Below, one piece after another: positions 1 through 5,814 of a DNA stretch of 5,814 bases. The notes under the pieces are model-generated. The model ran no database searches. It had not been told where the DNA came from and worked only from the letters and a program-made list of their open reading frames with translations. Position 1 is the stretch's first letter. Each line of letters starts with the position of its first letter. A program made the translations under genes and the position numbers. Origin of the DNA: a virus (taxonomy: Duplodnaviria; Heunggongvirae; Uroviricota; Caudoviricetes); IMG/VR virus record IMGVR_UViG_3300011888_000053. The stretch is one strand, 5' to 3'.

Positions 1-192
1 ATGCACAAAGCATCTCCTGTTGAGTTAAGAACGAGTATTGAGATGGCACATAGCCTTGCTCAAATTGGAGTCAGGTTTGTGCCAATACCAGTAGAAACAG
101 ACGAAGAATTTCATACGTTAGCCACATCCCTTTCACAAAAGCTGGAAATGATGGTGGCGAAAGCAGAAGCAGATGAGAGAGACCAGGTATGA
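1..192 (+). CDS. Hypothetical prophage protein (63 aa)
   Basis: ORF starting with ATG at position 1; stop TGA overlaps the ATG at 189 (ATGA). No family recognised. Confidence 0.45.
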   Translation: MHKASPVELRTSIEMAHSLAQIGVRFVPIPVETDEEFHTLATSLSQKLEMMVAKAEADERDQV

Positions 193-272: not shown

Positions 273-616
273 CACCTCAGCAGGAAAACGCCCTTCGCAG
301 TATTGCCCGTCAGGCTAATTCTGAAATCAAAAAAGCCAGACAGCAGTTTCCGGATAAAAACGTCGATGACATTTGCCGTAGCGTACTGAAGAAGCACCGC
401 GAAACGGTAACGCTGATGGGATTCACACCGACTCATTTAAGCCTGGCGATCGGCATGTTAAACAGCGTCTTTAAGTTATGGAGCTACAGGCTCCTTTTTT
501 ATTATTCGCATTTACCCTCAAGCGTATTAACCAACAATTCAGGGATTAATGAAAGATGGCAGACATCATTGATTCAGCATCAGAAATTGAAGAATTACAG
601 CGCAACACAGCAATAA
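269..616 (+). CDS. Hypothetical protein (start uncertain: GTG 269 or ATG 203)
   Basis: Open frame 203..616 in the ORF track. ATG 203 has no obvious Shine-Dalgarno, whereas GTG 269 has GGGG 8 nt upstream and overlaps the stop of the small ORF. The C-terminal about 45 aa overlap the TraR-like gene and look low-complexity, so the true 3' end is doubtful. Confidence 0.35.
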   Translation: MTPQQENALRSIARQANSEIKKARQQFPDKNVDDICRSVLKKHRETVTLMGFTPTHLSLAIGMLNSVFKLWSYRLLFYYSHLPSSVLTNNSGINERWQTSLIQHQKLKNYSATQQ

Positions 617-777
617 AAATGCGCCGCCTGAACCACCAGACTATATCTGCCACTCATTGTTGTGAGTGTGGCGATCCCATAGATGAGCGAAGACGCCTGG
701 CCGTTCAGGGTTGTCGGACTTGTGCAAGTTGCCAGGAAGTTCTGGAGCTTATCAGTAAACAGAGAGGTTCGAAGTGA
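556..777 (+). CDS. TraR/DksA-family C4 zinc-finger protein (phage-type, 73 aa)
   Basis: 73-aa protein with a four-Cys motif (CCEC...CRTCASC) and a GDPIDERRR segment, matching the size and pattern of phage/plasmid TraR-like zinc-finger proteins. Confidence 0.8.
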   Translation: MADIIDSASEIEELQRNTAIKMRRLNHQTISATHCCECGDPIDERRRLAVQGCRTCASCQEVLELISKQRGSK

Positions 778-1385: not shown

Positions 1386-2000
1386 ATGAAAAAATCAATA
1401 CTAATTTTAGGGCTTACGTTAATTGTCTCATCTCAAATACCATCGGCAATGGCAAAAAATGAATCAAAACTATGGGTTGTTGTTGATCGAACGGAAAGAC
1501 ATACCTGCCCTTCAAGTAAATGTGGAGTGGCTGGGAAACTATTTTTCAGGGAAGGCGTAGATTTTCTAGAAAAAAAAGGTGAATGGGTTCGTATAACTGA
1601 GCCATATTCAGCCTCATGTGTTGGAGGGGAAAGCGAATATATTAAAGAAGGTAATAAATCCTGCACAAGAAAAAATGGAATCGTTAATGGCAAGTTTTCA
1701 GAATGGGTTAAACTTAGTGATCTTAGCAGTGAAAGGCCATCAGATCCTGCTGAAAATGCGAGCGGAGATGATACTTTAATCAAAGGATCTGATGACTACC
1801 GTATATACAAAAAAGAGTTTTCTTCGGCAGCTAGGAAGTTAATAAATGAAGGGGTCTGCACGGAAAGCGATTTTAAGGAAATCGGAGGGTGGATGGCATC
1901 AAGCAATAAGGGTGAAAACATCTATTTCACATATTGCGGAGGAATGACGTTGTCGAACAGAATATACCTAGATGTTAAAAGTGGAAAGACTTTTAGATAA
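1386..2000 (+). CDS. Secreted Cys-containing protein of unknown function (204 aa), possible SH3b-like N-terminal domain; AT-rich cargo gene
   Basis: RBS AAGGAAA 6 nt upstream of ATG. N-terminus MKKSILILGLTLIVSSQIPSAMA is a typical Sec signal peptide with an A-x-A cleavage motif. Mature region has 6 Cys and a W-V..R..P...G-W-V-R-I pattern reminiscent of bacterial SH3 domains. Clearly AT-rich by eye compared with the flanks. Confidence 0.75.
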   Translation: MKKSILILGLTLIVSSQIPSAMAKNESKLWVVVDRTERHTCPSSKCGVAGKLFFREGVDFLEKKGEWVRITEPYSASCVGGESEYIKEGNKSCTRKNGIVNGKFSEWVKLSDLSSERPSDPAENASGDDTLIKGSDDYRIYKKEFSSAARKLINEGVCTESDFKEIGGWMASSNKGENIYFTYCGGMTLSNRIYLDVKSGKTFR

Positions 2001-2070
2001 TATGATATTACCAATAACAGTATTGATTTAATGCCTCCATAGAATTATCTCTAGGAAGTAGGTATAAGAA

Positions 2071-2106
2071 AAGCCCGCACAATGAGCTGCTGCGGGCTTT
2101 GTGTTA
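2071..2106 (+). terminator. Stem-loop terminator downstream of the secreted-protein gene
   Basis: Perfect 9-bp stem AAGCCCGCA (2071..2079) / TGCGGGCTT (2091..2099) with an 11-nt loop, followed by a T-rich tract (TGTGTTATT). Confidence 0.5.
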
Positions 2107-2150
2107 TTCGCCATATTTTATGAAGCAAATACGACACTATAGATAATTAA

Positions 2151-2293
2151 GCGTTGCTGGTTGTCGATTCCTCAATCACTCCTGTGGATGGCTCTCTTCT
2201 TGTATGTGCCATTGAAGGGGAATATCGCGTAAAAAGATACCGGAAGTATCCGCGCCGCCATGATTGTCTTTCTCCTGATGCAGGAAAAGCAGA
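2151..2293 (+). pseudogene. 5'-truncated S24 peptidase (cI/LexA/UmuD-like) C-terminal fragment
   Basis: Immediately after a TAA at 2148..2150 the frame reads ALLVVDSSITPVDGSLLVCAIEGEYRVKRYRKYPRRHDCLSPDAG, which aligns by eye with the UmuD/LexA C-terminal block (DLLIVDSAIT..GDIVIAAVDGEFTVKKL..L.P.N). The upstream catalytic Ser region (GDSM) is absent. The 2154..2471 ORF in the track is this fragment reading through into unrelated sequence. Confidence 0.45.
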
Positions 2294-2632
2294 ATGGATA
2301 AATCAGCAACAGAGCACAAAGCCGATCAGAGAGCCAAGCAAGCATCATCCGGTATGCGTAAGCTGGAGCTTGTACTTGATGCTCAGGAAATTGAAATGCT
2401 GGAGCGTAACTGTGCCACGCGTCGCTTCAGGCGTGCGCCTTGCGAGTTTGGTGAGTACATCGCGTTACTGAGCCGCCAGGATGATGCACGTGTGCGCTGG
2501 CGTATAAAATCGATCAGCAGAAAACGTTGCGGTAAGTGCGGCGAGAGAGTTCCTGTTAATTCATGCCCGTGTAATGGTGACTCACAATGCTGGGTGACCA
2601 AAGGCTGGCACGAAACAAAATTAATGATATAA
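2294..2632 (+). CDS. Hypothetical protein with putative ribbon-helix-helix-like N-region and C-terminal Cys-rich (CxxC-x9-CxC) zinc-ribbon-like motif (112 aa)
   Basis: AGGA 8 nt upstream of ATG. The segment RKLELVLDAQEIEMLERN...EFGEYIALLSRQ fits a strand-helix-helix pattern, and RCGKCGERVPVNSCPCNG is a four-Cys cluster. Backbone-like GC. Family not recognised. Confidence 0.55.
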   Translation: MDKSATEHKADQRAKQASSGMRKLELVLDAQEIEMLERNCATRRFRRAPCEFGEYIALLSRQDDARVRWRIKSISRKRCGKCGERVPVNSCPCNGDSQCWVTKGWHETKLMI

Positions 2633-2638
2633 ATCTCT

Positions 2639-2650
2639 GTGACATGTCAC
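2639..2650. promoter_or_regulatory. Perfect 12-bp palindrome GTGACATGTCAC immediately upstream of the RBS of the 2661 gene (candidate operator)
   Basis: GTGACATGTCAC is its own reverse complement. It lies 7 nt after the upstream stop codon and directly abuts the GGAGG Shine-Dalgarno at 2651..2655. Confidence 0.3.
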
Positions 2651-2660
2651 GGAGGCGGCA

Positions 2661-3089
2661 ATGAAATTAGACCAGCAATATCTAAAAGATCTACTTATCG
2701 CATTCGAAAAAACTCGTGGCCCTGACACGATGCTTAGTGAACTAGAGGATAATGGCTTTAATAGATATGACCAAGATTTTATTTTCCATATGCGATTATT
2801 ATGTGACTACGAATTAATAGTCAGGGTTGATGGAAAACCTGGGTTCGGTCATATAATGTCCAAAGCGTTAGGGGAAGGTGTTGGATATAGTTGGATCGAA
2901 GTACCACTGAGGTTGACAGCAAGAGGGCATGATTTTATTGCTGACTTACGTCAAAAGGATGTCTGGCAAGCTATAAAAACAAACTTTAAGGATGAGGGAA
3001 TTAGTACACTTATGAGTGTTTCAAAATCACTAGCAAAAGGCTTTGCAAGGAAAAAGATAAAAGATATTACAGGAATAGATATTGAATAA
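2661..3089 (+). CDS. DUF2513-like small protein (142 aa); AT-rich cargo gene
   Basis: Strong RBS GGAGG 5 nt upstream of ATG. The N-terminus (MKLDQQYLKDLLIAFEK...) and the motif LTARGHDFIADLRQKDVWQAIK match my recollection of the DUF2513 pattern (LTxEGHxFLDxIR...W). Markedly AT-rich by eye versus the upstream gene. Confidence 0.65.
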   Translation: MKLDQQYLKDLLIAFEKTRGPDTMLSELEDNGFNRYDQDFIFHMRLLCDYELIVRVDGKPGFGHIMSKALGEGVGYSWIEVPLRLTARGHDFIADLRQKDVWQAIKTNFKDEGISTLMSVSKSLAKGFARKKIKDITGIDIE

Positions 3090-3135
3090 TTCTTAGCATC
3101 AAGCAACTACTGCCTTTGGTGGAAATTATATCTGA

Positions 3136-3160
3136 ACTCGCTACGGCGAGTTTTGTTTTA
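3136..3160 (+). terminator. Rho-independent terminator after the DUF2513-like gene
   Basis: 6-bp stem ACTCGC / GCGAGT with TACG loop, followed by TTTGTTTTA. Confidence 0.6.
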
Positions 3161-3172
3161 TGGAGATGATAA

Positions 3173-3340
3173 ATGCACTTCCGAGTCACAGGTGAATGGA
3201 ATGGAGAGCCATTCAACAAAGTTATCGAAGCAGAGAACATCAACGACTGCTATGACCACTGGATGCTGTGGGCGCAGATAGCACATGCAGACGTAACCAA
3301 TATTCGAATTGAAGAACTGAAAGAACACCAAGCCGCCTGA
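3173..3340 (+). CDS. Small prophage protein (55 aa, MHFRVTGEWNGEPFNKVIEAENINDCYDHWMLWAQIAHADVTNIRIEELKEHQAA)
   Basis: GGAG 7 nt upstream of ATG 3173; stop TGA 3338..3340. Below the ORF-track size cutoff, so hand-translated. Feels like a conserved small prophage protein but I cannot name it with confidence. Confidence 0.55.
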   Translation: MHFRVTGEWNGEPFNKVIEAENINDCYDHWMLWAQIAHADVTNIRIEELKEHQAA

Positions 3341-3355
3341 TGGCGGTTTTTTATT
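3333..3355 (+). terminator. GC-rich hairpin plus T6 tract overlapping the stop codon of the 55-aa gene (terminator/attenuator)
   Basis: CCGCC (3333..3337), loop TGAT containing the TGA stop, GGCGG (3342..3346), then TTTTTT (3347..3352). Only 14 nt separate the T-tract from the next ATG. Confidence 0.45.
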
Positions 3356-3366
3356 GGAGACAAGAA

Positions 3367-3711
3367 ATGTCAGATTTGGCTATGAAGGTTTTGAAATGGC
3401 AATCGACTGGCGATGTTGGCATCAGTAGCGCAACTCTTGCCTCAATCGCATGTGGACTGAAAAAGAATATCTATGGTCATAGCTTCGGTGCTCCACATGA
3501 CGCAGCCGATTTCCGACGATGCGTTGCACTGGTTGAGCAGATCCCAGAAATCAGAGATTCATTCGACAAGGTTGCAAAGCGCGTTCCGGCATTCAAAGGC
3601 ATCCTCACCGAATGGGATTCCCTCGTTGCTCTGTTGAAGTCTGAAATGAAGATACACGGAAACAAAGCACCAGAGACTTACAGAAGAATTAGCGAGTTAC
3701 GCAAGGACTAA
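3367..3711 (+). CDS. Hypothetical prophage protein (114 aa; alternative start ATG 3340 gives 123 aa)
   Basis: GGAG at 3356..3359, 7 nt upstream of ATG 3367. The ORF track extends it to ATG 3340, which overlaps the upstream stop (TGATG) and would place the hairpin inside the coding region. No family recognised. Confidence 0.6.
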   Translation: MSDLAMKVLKWQSTGDVGISSATLASIACGLKKNIYGHSFGAPHDAADFRRCVALVEQIPEIRDSFDKVAKRVPAFKGILTEWDSLVALLKSEMKIHGNKAPETYRRISELRKD

Positions 3712-3770
3712 CCACAGCCTCACACTCGATGAGGCATTTTCATTTATCAAGATATCCAGACCTACCATCG

Positions 3771-3791
3771 CCGCATCAATGCGGTTTTTTT
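3771..3791 (+). terminator. Rho-independent terminator after the 114-aa gene
   Basis: CCGCA / TGCGG 5-bp stem with TCAA loop, followed by seven T. Confidence 0.6.
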
Positions 3792-3800
3792 ATTGCCTGA

Positions 3801-3818
3801 TTTGCAGGTTCGATTCCC
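3801..3818 (+). other. tRNA T-arm-like fragment (TTTGCAGGTTCGATTCCC) upstream of the excisionase gene
   Basis: Contains GCAGG-TTCGATT-CC, which matches the T-stem/T-loop of tRNA-Arg(CCU) (argW) as I recall it, then diverges. No D-arm or anticodon arm upstream, so not a tRNA gene. Confidence 0.4.
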
Positions 3819-3836
3819 TATTCGGAGATAGCACTC

Positions 3837-4037
3837 ATGCAACACGAACTACAGCCTGATTCACTGGTTGATTTGAAATTCATCATGGCCGATACTGGCT
3901 TCGGTAAAACCTTCATCTATGACCGGATTAAGTCCGGGGACCTGCCTAAAGCCAAAGTTATCCACGGGCGAGCAAGATGGTTATATCGTGACCATTGTGA
4001 ATTCAAAAATAAGCTCTTAAGCCGCGCCAATGGGTAA
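3837..4037 (+). CDS. torI: TorI-like recombination directionality factor / excisionase (AlpA/Xis-family winged helix), 66 aa
   Basis: MQHELQPDSLVDLKFIMADTGFGKTFIYDRIKSGDLPKAKVIHGRARWLYRDHCEFKNKLLSRANG matches my recollection of the 66-aa TorI protein of the KplE1 prophage. GGAG 9 nt upstream of ATG. Sits next to the att-like tRNA fragment, as expected for an RDF. Confidence 0.8.
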   Translation: MQHELQPDSLVDLKFIMADTGFGKTFIYDRIKSGDLPKAKVIHGRARWLYRDHCEFKNKLLSRANG

Positions 4038-4566: not shown

Positions 4567-5814
4567 CTATATTGCTGAAGGTACAGGCGTTTCCATAACT
4601 ATTTGCTCGCGTTTTTTACTCAAGAAGAAAATGCCAAATAGCAACATCAGGCAGACAATACCCGAAATTGCGAAGAAAACTGTTTGGTAGCCTGCGTGGT
4701 CAAAGAGTATCCCAGTCGGCGTTGAAAGCAGCACAATCCCAAGCGAACTGGCAATTTGAAAACCAATCAGAAAGATCGTCGACGACAGGCGCTTATCAAA
4801 GTTTGCCACGCTGTATTTGAAGACGGATATGACACAAAGTGGAACCTCAATGGCATGTAACAACTTCACTAATGAAATAATCCAGGGGTTAACGAACAGC
4901 GCGCAGGAAAGGATACGCAACGCCATAATCACAACTCCGATAAGTAATGCATTTTTTGGCCCTACCCGATTCACAAAGAAAGGAATAATCGCCATGCACA
5001 GCGCTTCGAGTACCACCTGGAATGAGTTGAGATAACCATACAGGCGCGTTCCTACATCGTGTGATTCGAATAAACCTGAATAAAAGACAGGAAAAAGTTG
5101 TTGATCAAAAATGTTATAGAAAGACCACGTCCCCACAATAAATATGACGAAAACCCAGAAGTTTCGATCCTTGAAAACTGCGATAAAATCCTCTTTTTTT
5201 ACCCCTCCCGCATCTGCCGCTACGCACTGGTGATCCTTATCTTTAAAACGCATGTTGATCATCATAAATACAGCGCCAAATAGCGAGACCAACCAGAAGT
5301 TGATATGGGGACTGATACTAAAAAATATGCCGGCAAAGAACGCGCCAATAGCATAGCCAAAAGATCCCCAGGCGCGCGCTGTTCCATATTCGAAATGAAA
5401 ATTTCGCGCCATTTTTTCGGTGAAGCTATCAAGCAAACCGCATCCCGCCAGATACCCCAAGCCAAAAAATAGCGCCCCCAGAATTAGACCTACAGAAAAA
5501 TTGCTTTGCAGTAACGGTTCATAAACGTAAATCATAAACGGTCCGGTCAAGACCAGGATGAAACTCATACACCAGATGAGCGGTTTCTTCAGACCGAGTT
5601 TATCCTGAACGATGCCGTAGAACATCATAAATAGAATGCTGGTAAACTGGTTGACCGAATAAAGTGTACCTAATTCCGTCCCTGTCAACCCTAGATGTCC
5701 TTTCAGCCAAATAGCGTATAACGACCACCACAGCGACCAGGAAATAAAAAAGAGAAATGAGTAACTGGATGCAAAACGATAGTACGCATTTCTGAATGGA
5801 ATATTCAGTGCCAT
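4567..5814 (-). CDS. cscB: Sucrose:H+ symporter CscB (LacY-family oligosaccharide permease, MFS), 415 aa, complete
   Basis: 415-aa polytopic membrane protein starting MALNIPFRNAYYRFASSYSFLFFISW... that matches my memory of E. coli CscB and the LacY/RafB/CscB family. Start ATG at 5812..5814 (window end), stop TAG at 4567..4569. Confidence 0.88.
   Translation of the reverse strand: MALNIPFRNAYYRFASSYSFLFFISWSLWWSLYAIWLKGHLGLTGTELGTLYSVNQFTSILFMMFYGIVQDKLGLKKPLIWCMSFILVLTGPFMIYVYEPLLQSNFSVGLILGALFFGLGYLAGCGLLDSFTEKMARNFHFEYGTARAWGSFGYAIGAFFAGIFFSISPHINFWLVSLFGAVFMMINMRFKDKDHQCVAADAGGVKKEDFIAVFKDRNFWVFVIFIVGTWSFYNIFDQQLFPVFYSGLFESHDVGTRLYGYLNSFQVVLEALCMAIIPFFVNRVGPKNALLIGVVIMALRILSCALFVNPWIISLVKLLHAIEVPLCVISVFKYSVANFDKRLSSTIFLIGFQIASSLGIVLLSTPTGILFDHAGYQTVFFAISGIVCLMLLFGIFFLSKKREQIVMETPVPSAI

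Follow-up and report, generated by a model that had tools for sequence, protein, structure and literature searches.

Does a pair of small neighbouring genes with a palindrome between them work as one module, or do its parts belong to different units? The question is raised by a locus in 5,814 nucleotides of tailed-phage DNA (Caudoviricetes; IMG/VR virus record IMGVR_UViG_3300011888_000053), the whole of which is called the window here. The two genes lie on the + strand 28 nt apart, as the first-pass annotation of the sequence had them, and encode proteins of 112 amino acids (gene 1) and 142 amino acids (gene 2, a DUF2513 protein). The perfect 12-bp palindrome GTGACATGTCAC, also noticed at that stage, stands between the gene-1 stop codon and the ribosome binding site of gene 2. 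The ensemble was taken for a small DNA-binding protein, its operator and a foreign effector, and so for a possible toxin-antitoxin, superinfection-exclusion or defence module. The comparisons assembled here lead elsewhere. From its distribution among homologues the palindrome is a fixed appendage of gene 1, with DUF2513 as one of several possible followers, and the distribution of the two genes shows them to be separable accessory genes and not an obligate two-gene system. The explanation we favour, to which we give a little better than an even chance, is that gene 1 and the palindrome form a regulator-plus-site unit, and that DUF2513 is inserted cargo whose translation is coupled to that of gene 1.

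Taken by itself, the window gives the palindrome no significance. Among dinucleotide-shuffled versions of it, 81% hold at least one perfect 12-bp palindrome and the average is 1.6, and the window has a second at 1562; significance comes only from conservation elsewhere. Loci were gathered both via DUF2513 and via gene 1, and the gene-1 3′ ends were then compared. In 70 of the 87 distinct gene-1 3′ contexts, which span 47-99% protein identity, the palindrome is perfect, and in 9 it has a single mismatch. Each of its positions carries 1.7-2.0 bits of information, whereas the coding flank carries about 1 bit and the sequence just past the palindrome about 0.3. Most gene-1 homologues have their TGA stop codon inside it (..GTG TGA CAT GTC AC), and what comes after GTCAC falls into many unrelated classes: a tiny open reading frame (ORF) with a terminator, other terminators, LexA-box promoters, other genes and DUF2513. 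There were 34 downstream classes when every copy of the 11-mer in the loci gathered by then was counted, copies at the terL site included. Since the palindrome is kept after gene 1 whatever module comes downstream, it belongs to gene 1. The operator-like element of the earlier proposal is therefore real and under selection, though it is attached to gene 1 regardless of the downstream gene and is not a property of the pair.

Several other explanations of the palindrome were tried and set aside. That distant homologues might have a different, co-varying palindrome was rejected, as the same half-sites are kept in TGTGACATGTCACA, which follows the gene-1 stop codon in Pectobacterium phage ZF40 (62% identity), and in CGTGACCTGTCACG, which spans that of Pantoea phage AH07 (55% identity). 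A Yersinia P2-like homologue (37% identity) has no palindrome and an Aeromonas homologue shows only an imperfect resemblance, so that these four give no evidence of covariation. As a stable RNA hairpin the palindrome was rejected, the 12-nt core being worth just -1.2 kcal/mol; natural variants that might show paired changes are few. Its left half, GTGACA, could serve as a -35 element, and in several of the terminator-followed classes there are -10-like hexamers 17-18 bp downstream; this was dropped as a general explanation because the copies at terL and in structural operons lack a -10 and the ‘-10’ of the window falls in the gene-2 start codon. Use of the ATG within the palindrome as the start of a mini-ORF or of an extended gene 2 was rejected too, its frame relative to gene 2 varying between loci. 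No Rfam family matches anywhere in the window, and no paper with the 12-mer was found in the literature searched. Because all 12 positions are conserved, the core hairpin is weak and the link to a basic, Cys-rich protein is tight, the palindrome would seem to be a DNA site that a protein recognizes, and gene 1 is the obvious candidate binder. In the explanation that we favour, gene 1 is inherited together with a 12-14-bp palindrome at or just past its stop codon, and that palindrome would be the DNA target of the gene-1 protein, bound by a dimer of it. Binding would control RNA polymerase at the palindrome, and so read-through into whatever lies downstream, DUF2513 being one of many alternative cargos inserted immediately past it.

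The palindrome is also present at junctions away from gene 1. Phage phiV10 (locus L238) has, besides the copy at the gene-1 end, exact copies at 2262-2273 and 19493-19504, where 0.16 would be expected with one mismatch allowed; one separates the gp21 stop codon from a terminator, and the other has the terL terminator on one side and, on the other, the stop codon of gp03, a minus-strand gene. Of the exact copies of epsilon15 (locus L360), at 2142-2153, 19517-19528 and 39612-39623, two overlap a stop codon, that of gp49 or gp18, and have a terminator next, and one comes after terL; a degenerate copy at 26618-26629, which with its two mismatches may be a chance match, overlaps the Rz stop codon. 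A second copy is found in 68 prophage loci, nearly always 2.2-2.6 kb downstream of gene 1. The right flank of that copy, a cargo slot past terL, is hypervariable, with various minus-strand genes ending 3-5 nt away, and the first 25 or so nt on its terL side vary across about 34 context groups. In the viral contigs scanned, the 14-mer has at least 134 sites; among the matches listed 40 are at gene-1 ends and many others beside terminators, and some sites are clearly coincidences within coding sequence. The window and Escherichia phage Chlobot have one copy each, at gene 1.

Two of the settings met in these scans are recorded for their own sake. In some unrelated viral contigs (L257, L276, L305 and L343) the palindrome stands within arrays of repeated GTGAC/GTCAC(G) that resemble iterons or a multi-site protein-binding region. 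In loci L184 and L207 (3340-3420) and similar epsilon15-like prophages of Salmonella/Citrobacter, a sigma-70-like promoter that comes within about 10 nt of the gene-1 palindrome is overlapped by a LexA box (TACTGT-N8-ACAGTA) and would drive a small gene before terS. By eye the small gene of L207 looks UmuD-like, and it may be the counterpart of the LexA-controlled antirepressor of SPC32H.

The placing of the sites between stop codons and terminators, together with that of gene 1 at the end of the early genes and next to the terminase genes, makes it an attractive possibility that they act in terminator read-through, as a late switch. Taken further, gene 1 would be a site-specific antiterminator or late switch that recognizes the palindrome, as DNA or, by means of the Arg-rich helix, in nascent RNA, just upstream of intrinsic terminators; in epsilon15-like phages it would link the early operon with the units for packaging, structure and lysis, and in the window prophage it would gate DUF2513. 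This fits the place of gene 1 in phiV10 and epsilon15, where it closes the early-right operon and adjoins terS, as well as its presence in all epsilon15-like phages found through terL and the lack of an annotated Q homologue in phiV10. It also fits the exact palindromes that stand between stop codon and terminator where early and structural operons end, the copy beside the terL terminator, the degenerate copy at the Rz stop codon, and a gene-1 N-terminus which, to judge from the alignment, may be likened to the arginine-rich motifs of N proteins. The palindrome at the terL site, however, comes after the terminator as late transcription runs, the RNA hairpin of the core is very weak, the lambdoid hosts of gene 1 have an N and a Q of their own and a single palindrome, and no terminator is present within 484 nt past the palindrome in the window. 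We think this account improbable. A wider proposal, which we also consider unlikely, is that the gene-1 family and the palindrome TGTGACATGTCAC(A) constitute an undescribed regulatory system that is both the missing late-gene switch, acting via terminator read-through, and a docking point for cargo. Its sites would be those that, in epsilon15-like phages, separate stop codon from terminator at the end of each unit, whether early, packaging, structural or lysis, and its docked cargos would include DUF2513 in the window and the LexA-controlled genes in the Salmonella relatives.

The same distribution could instead be mainly that of a recombination or cassette-boundary sequence, a short conserved linker for the exchange of cassettes like the PeSL cassettes of T4-type phages, with gene 1 merely a backbone gene beside a hotspot and no dedicated binding needed. 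At the gene-1 site divergence begins exactly at the edge of the palindrome; the variable terL-side flank and the closely abutting minus-strand genes have the look of such a boundary, many other terminator-adjacent copies are in unrelated viral contigs, and in one lineage, dealt with below, the palindrome outlives gene 1. Against this, 12 bp is very short for homologous exchange, no recombinase is associated, and perfect conservation of 12 positions, the centre included, fits a recognition site better than microhomology. Selection for an intact gene 1 with its site would, moreover, give the same sharp boundary. We judge a boundary function improbable as the main role of the palindrome.

The gene-1 protein matches its PHROG family end to end, and its length of 112 amino acids is kept in more than 100 clusters of homologues, the wider family being small (178 representative clusters at E up to 0.001). 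Every enterobacterial epsilon15-like phage that the phage collection yielded by its terL (at least 78% identical to that of phiV10) has the gene, and in the gene maps that were read, those of phiV10, epsilon15 and several prophage loci, terS comes directly after it. By this comparison it is a core gene of epsilon15-like phages. In other phages it overlaps the preceding gene within a long operon. An alignment of 56 family members, with identity down to 22%, has an Arg/Lys-rich N-terminal helix, then a strand-like hydrophobic stretch and two helices, the second with PYxxxEYIxxLIRxD. It also has a Cys site in which C79 and C82 never vary, C99 hardly does, and a further Cys stands at either 91 or 93. 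The cysteine cluster first given as CxxC-x9-CxC is thus conserved in the family and has to be corrected to CxxC-x8-CxC, plus C99.

The ribbon-helix-helix (RHH) domain proposed for the N-terminal region has fared less well: a small nucleic-acid binder with a conserved Cys4 site is plausible, but no RHH profile matches significantly. Pfam gives no match for gene 1; RHH_5, RHH_1 or RepB-RCR_reg match 5 of the 56 family members weakly (E 0.013-0.07), and the match of gene 1 to the CopG-like YbfE of NCBIfam (E 0.0067) is far below the cut-off. The best PDB profile matches of the family are the DksA-type zinc fingers TraR and YbiI (E 0.06-0.075), and hhalign of the family with F-plasmid TraR gives a probability of 72%; PF01258, the DksA/TraR C4 finger, matches none of 50 + 56 family members. 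With the gene-1 profile A2 only CAP proteins were retrieved from PDB, at E about 1, and the sequence search there gave nothing significant. The AF2 monomer model has helices at the expected places and no strand, and Foldseek with this low-confidence model had no usable match. The Arg-rich helix, the beta-alpha-alpha pattern and the Cys site are weakly compatible with an RHH domain followed by a zinc site; the RHH and TraR-type assignments are leads, not results. Gene 1 probably encodes a small nucleic-acid-binding regulator. That RefSeq and PHROGs call the family ‘transcriptional regulator’ is annotation, and neither an experimental basis for the label nor a tested function of any member was found in the literature searched.

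The identity of gene 2 is clear. As the first-pass annotation had supposed, it is a DUF2513 protein (PF10711, E 7.7e-11, 42.7 bits with a cut-off of 29.6, profile positions 1-100 of 100). It belongs to phrog_585 and is named ‘DUF2513 domain-containing protein’ by PGAP in RefSeq genomes. Its AT-richness, judged by eye at first, is borne out by a GC fraction of 0.364 versus 0.499 for gene 1 and 0.45-0.47 for the backbone. There are 99 homologues, all from Enterobacterales plus a few neighbouring groups, and a scan of genome contigs yielded 6 DUF2513 loci. The structure model is confident and has the three-helix bundle and beta-hairpin wing of winged-helix proteins, with matches to solved regulators, so gene 2 is modelled as a MarR/PadR-like winged helix and is probably a dimeric DNA binder. 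Searches of PDB with its sequence and profile gave nothing significant (one chance match, E 0.62), no toxin family of Pfam, NCBIfam or PADLOC matches it, and no relevant paper on DUF2513 function was found in the literature searched. The effector or toxin that gene 2 had been thought to be is replaced by a DNA-binding fold with no toxin or enzymatic domain.

The pairing of the two genes is not confined to this one prophage. Gene-1 relatives (47-61% identity) lie directly upstream of DUF2513 relatives (54-73%) at a spacing of about 28 nt, and divergent pairs with the palindrome are present in Yersinia, Cronobacter-like and other lineages. Every DUF2513-linked gene-1 copy ends with TAA or TAG 5-7 nt before the palindrome, not with TGA inside it; since this ending is common to them all, the junction must be old. 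A functional link of some kind may exist between the two genes. For a module in which gene 1 is antidote or regulator, the palindrome its operator and DUF2513 the effector, there speak the adjacency and constant spacing across divergent pairs, the presence of the whole block in at least 141 of the 183 E. coli genomes with gene 2, the foreign base composition of gene 2 and the uncharacterised state of both families. Yet gene 1 is found in 639 E. coli genomes, mostly as phiV10-type copies without DUF2513, and it keeps its palindrome regardless. In an Enterobacter lineage (loci L005, L049 and L050) the last 10 or so gene-1 codons and the palindrome precede a full-length DUF2513 gene; as an intact gene 2 persists where gene 1 is reduced to so little, gene 1 is unlikely to be its antidote. 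More distant DUF2513 genes (at most 51% identity) are in unrelated moron positions, for instance between lysis and terminase genes, so the strict co-inheritance of a type II toxin-antitoxin pair is not seen. Nor is there an autoregulated promoter and operator ahead of the pair, the palindrome lying downstream of gene 1. PADLOC-DB v2 has no family matching either protein at E up to 1, and none for five proteins of the window. With a winged helix in place of a toxin added to this, the idea of a toxin-antitoxin, superinfection-exclusion or defence module is left with very little probability.

The junction can also be followed in the DNA of the relatives. By Megablast, the match to phiV10-type phages runs out at about 2625, within the final gene-1 codons, and from about 3126-3129 onward the sequence is again like that of 434, HK022 and Stx phages. 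The inserted segment therefore carries an alternative gene-1 tail, the palindrome, the ribosome binding site and DUF2513. It resembles a moron in its deviant composition (GC 0.364 for gene 2 versus 0.46-0.50) and in its insertion into a backbone that breaks at about 2625 and about 3126; the promoter and terminator of its own that a moron would have are missing from gene 2. The terminator said to close the module is present, but it is an element of the lambdoid backbone preceding orf55. Because it is located where the backbone has resumed, and the 3134-3160 hairpin is conserved in phages 434 and HK022, which lack both genes, it is not part of the gene pair. It is not the annotated tL4 either: that identification was rejected, as the alignment is to an adjacent conserved hairpin downstream and the annotated tL4 hairpin is missing from the window.

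No sigma-70-like promoter was found on the + strand within 1900-3900. Lacking a promoter of its own, gene 2 would share its transcript with gene 1. That transcript would start upstream, most likely as an antiterminated early-left one that crosses the terminator at about 2072-2100, and would end at the backbone terminator. The strong GGAGG ahead of gene 2 is as first described, and in other DUF2513-linked loci GGAG or AGGAG likewise follows the palindrome. In the window the palindrome is extended by CUCU/GGAG into a 9-bp hairpin (-10.8 kcal/mol when folded in isolation) that starts 3 nt past the gene-1 stop codon and whose 3′ arm covers GGAG. As the ribosome binding site of gene 2 sits in this palindrome-based hairpin, its translation is probably coupled to that of gene 1: ribosomes finishing gene 1 would melt the structure.

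A number of points weigh against the regulator-plus-site unit with translationally coupled cargo. Only the E. coli version has the hairpin extended over the Shine-Dalgarno sequence, and other DUF2513-linked loci lack the extension; because it is not conserved, the hairpin at the ribosome binding site is a local feature and not the cause of palindrome conservation. The DUF2513 subclade above about 55% identity is mostly found with gene 1 or its tail, which leaves room for a functional link between the two. In the Enterobacter lineage the palindrome is kept upstream of DUF2513 where gene 1 has been lost, so it may work without the gene-1 protein. The locus samples are the top 80 matches by similarity and include many near-duplicates. 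No significant profile match speaks for DNA binding by gene 1, and its structure model is poor (pLDDT 62).

The wider setting (Table 1) is the right-hand end of a lambdoid prophage, with the gene pair at the far end of the early-left operon. The block 2100-3400 is found in 141 of 5426 complete E. coli genomes and, at more than 99% identity, in Chlobot, where gam, bet and exo precede it and xis and int follow; in strain PK8568 the gene 1-gene 2 block is in a prophage with a different integrase, adjoining torS. Immediately upstream of gene 1, what had been called a repressor remnant is not from a CI repressor. It is a fragment of a HumD/UmuD-type S24 peptidase, with a match of E 0.007 to Pfam Peptidase_S24, and is labelled ‘DNA repair protein, incomplete’ by PGAP in PK8568. 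Its open frame runs on to 2471 (105 codons) and overlaps gene 1 in another frame. In the Chlobot record this overlapping frame is a ‘UmuD-like protein’ and gene 1 is cut to a 46-aa ‘transcriptional regulator’, which appears to be an annotation artefact.

Further upstream, the protein encoded at 556-777, in the same operon, scores slightly below the cut-off for NCBIfam C4_traR_proteo (E 1.7e-15, 57.3 bits, cut-off 59.7). A run of 10 N at 894-903, from an assembly gap or masking, breaks an ead/Ea22-like reading frame. The ORF at 1386-2000 has its own hairpin terminator at 2072-2100 and resembles a separate moron upstream of the gene pair. Downstream of the pair, the orf55-like gene has about 96% DNA identity to ORF55 of phage 434 and its own terminator at 3330-3349, and a gene like ORF114, known from phage 434, is also present. 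The small excisionase is presumably TorI-like. It is separated by about 530 bp of non-coding sequence from a chromosomal transporter gene, and the prophage end (attR) should lie between the two.

Table 1. Positions of the genes and elements of the window (5,814 nt)
Feature	Position	Strand	Basis or detail
DUF1382 gene	1-192		Pfam/NCBIfam scan
TraR/DksA-family C4 zinc-finger gene	556-777		Pfam zf-dskA_traR, E 1.4e-8
AT-rich ORF (GC 0.38), 204 aa, N-terminus like a signal peptide or lipoprotein	1386-2000		phrog_8310; weak SH3_3 match
HumD/UmuD-type S24 peptidase fragment	2154..2293	+	NCBIfam HumD, E 2.3e-14, positions 47-82 of 129
Gene 1, 112 aa, epsilon15 gp49 / phiV10 gp55 family	2294..2632	+	phrog_536, E 1.2e-47, end to end
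Mosaic segment absent from phiV10-type and lambdoid relatives	2626..3128	+	Megablast
Predicted RNA hairpin, palindrome + CUCU/GGAG	2635..2654	+	minimum free energy fold
Perfect 12-bp palindrome	2639-2650		cis element at gene-1 3′ end
Shine-Dalgarno sequence GGAGG of gene 2	2651..2655	+	read from sequence, 5 nt before ATG
Gene 2, 142-aa DUF2513 protein	2661..3089	+	predicted winged helix-turn-helix with C-terminal helices
Intrinsic terminator	3134..3160	+	terminator scan; stem 3134-3153, T-run to 3160
orf55-like backbone gene	3173..3340	+	phrog_676, E 7e-40
Small AlpA/TorI-like excisionase, 66 aa	3837-4037		phrog_66
Chromosomal LacY-type oligosaccharide transporter	4567-5814	-	

As a defence or toxin-antitoxin pair the locus is thus mostly a negative result, gene 2 being another predicted DNA binder and the genes being separable. 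What is most worth following is the distribution of the palindrome, a 12-bp sequence that is kept more strictly than the adjoining coding sequence, is linked to a gene of the epsilon15-like core, and turns up again where operons end and along the borders of variable cargo slots. If gene 1 does bind it, there would be a testable handle on late-gene control in epsilon15-like phages, of which no account was found in the literature searched, and the build-up of cargo at certain junctions could be explained in part and sites of prophage accessory genes predicted. For DUF2513 the gain is a model-based winged-helix assignment and a defined genomic niche.

Set beside known systems, the locus has partial likenesses in several directions. 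With type II toxin-antitoxin pairs whose antitoxin is of the RHH type (ParD/ParE, CcdA/CcdB) it has in common small co-oriented genes 28 nt apart, a possible RHH domain and a palindrome; it differs in that a toxin fold, strict co-occurrence and an autoregulated promoter upstream are all missing, and in that gene 2 survives alone. The DksA/TraR fingers (F-plasmid TraR, YbiI and lambda Orf73) share with gene 1 a helix followed by CxxCGxxLP...C, a borderline likeness. Their Cys spacing is CxxC-x17-CxxC and that of gene 1 CxxC-x8-CxC-x5-C, which is not that of a DksA/TraR finger, and gene 1 has an N-terminal extension of 50 residues. The MarR, PadR and HxlR regulators are of the same winged-helix class as gene 2, but sequence profiles do not place it among them, the Foldseek E-values are just 0.07-1 and the C-terminal helices differ.

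The T4-type phages reportedly have mobile regulatory cassettes, termed PeSL, that consist of a promoter plus a stem-loop. The locus is like these and like morons in having AT-rich cargo between backbone blocks and a short boundary sequence, able to form a stem-loop, that recurs at variable slots. It is unlike them in that DUF2513 lacks a promoter and terminator of its own and the boundary is a 12-bp palindrome beside terminators. The closest likeness is to gp49 of epsilon15 and gp55 of phiV10 (PHROG 536), which have 70-86% identity to gene 1, the same length and Cys pattern, and the palindrome at the 3′ end. Both of these phages have the gene at the end of their early genes, next to terS, with its stop codon inside the palindrome, whereas gene 1 of the window is in a lambdoid early-left operon and ends 6 nt before the palindrome, with DUF2513 coming next.

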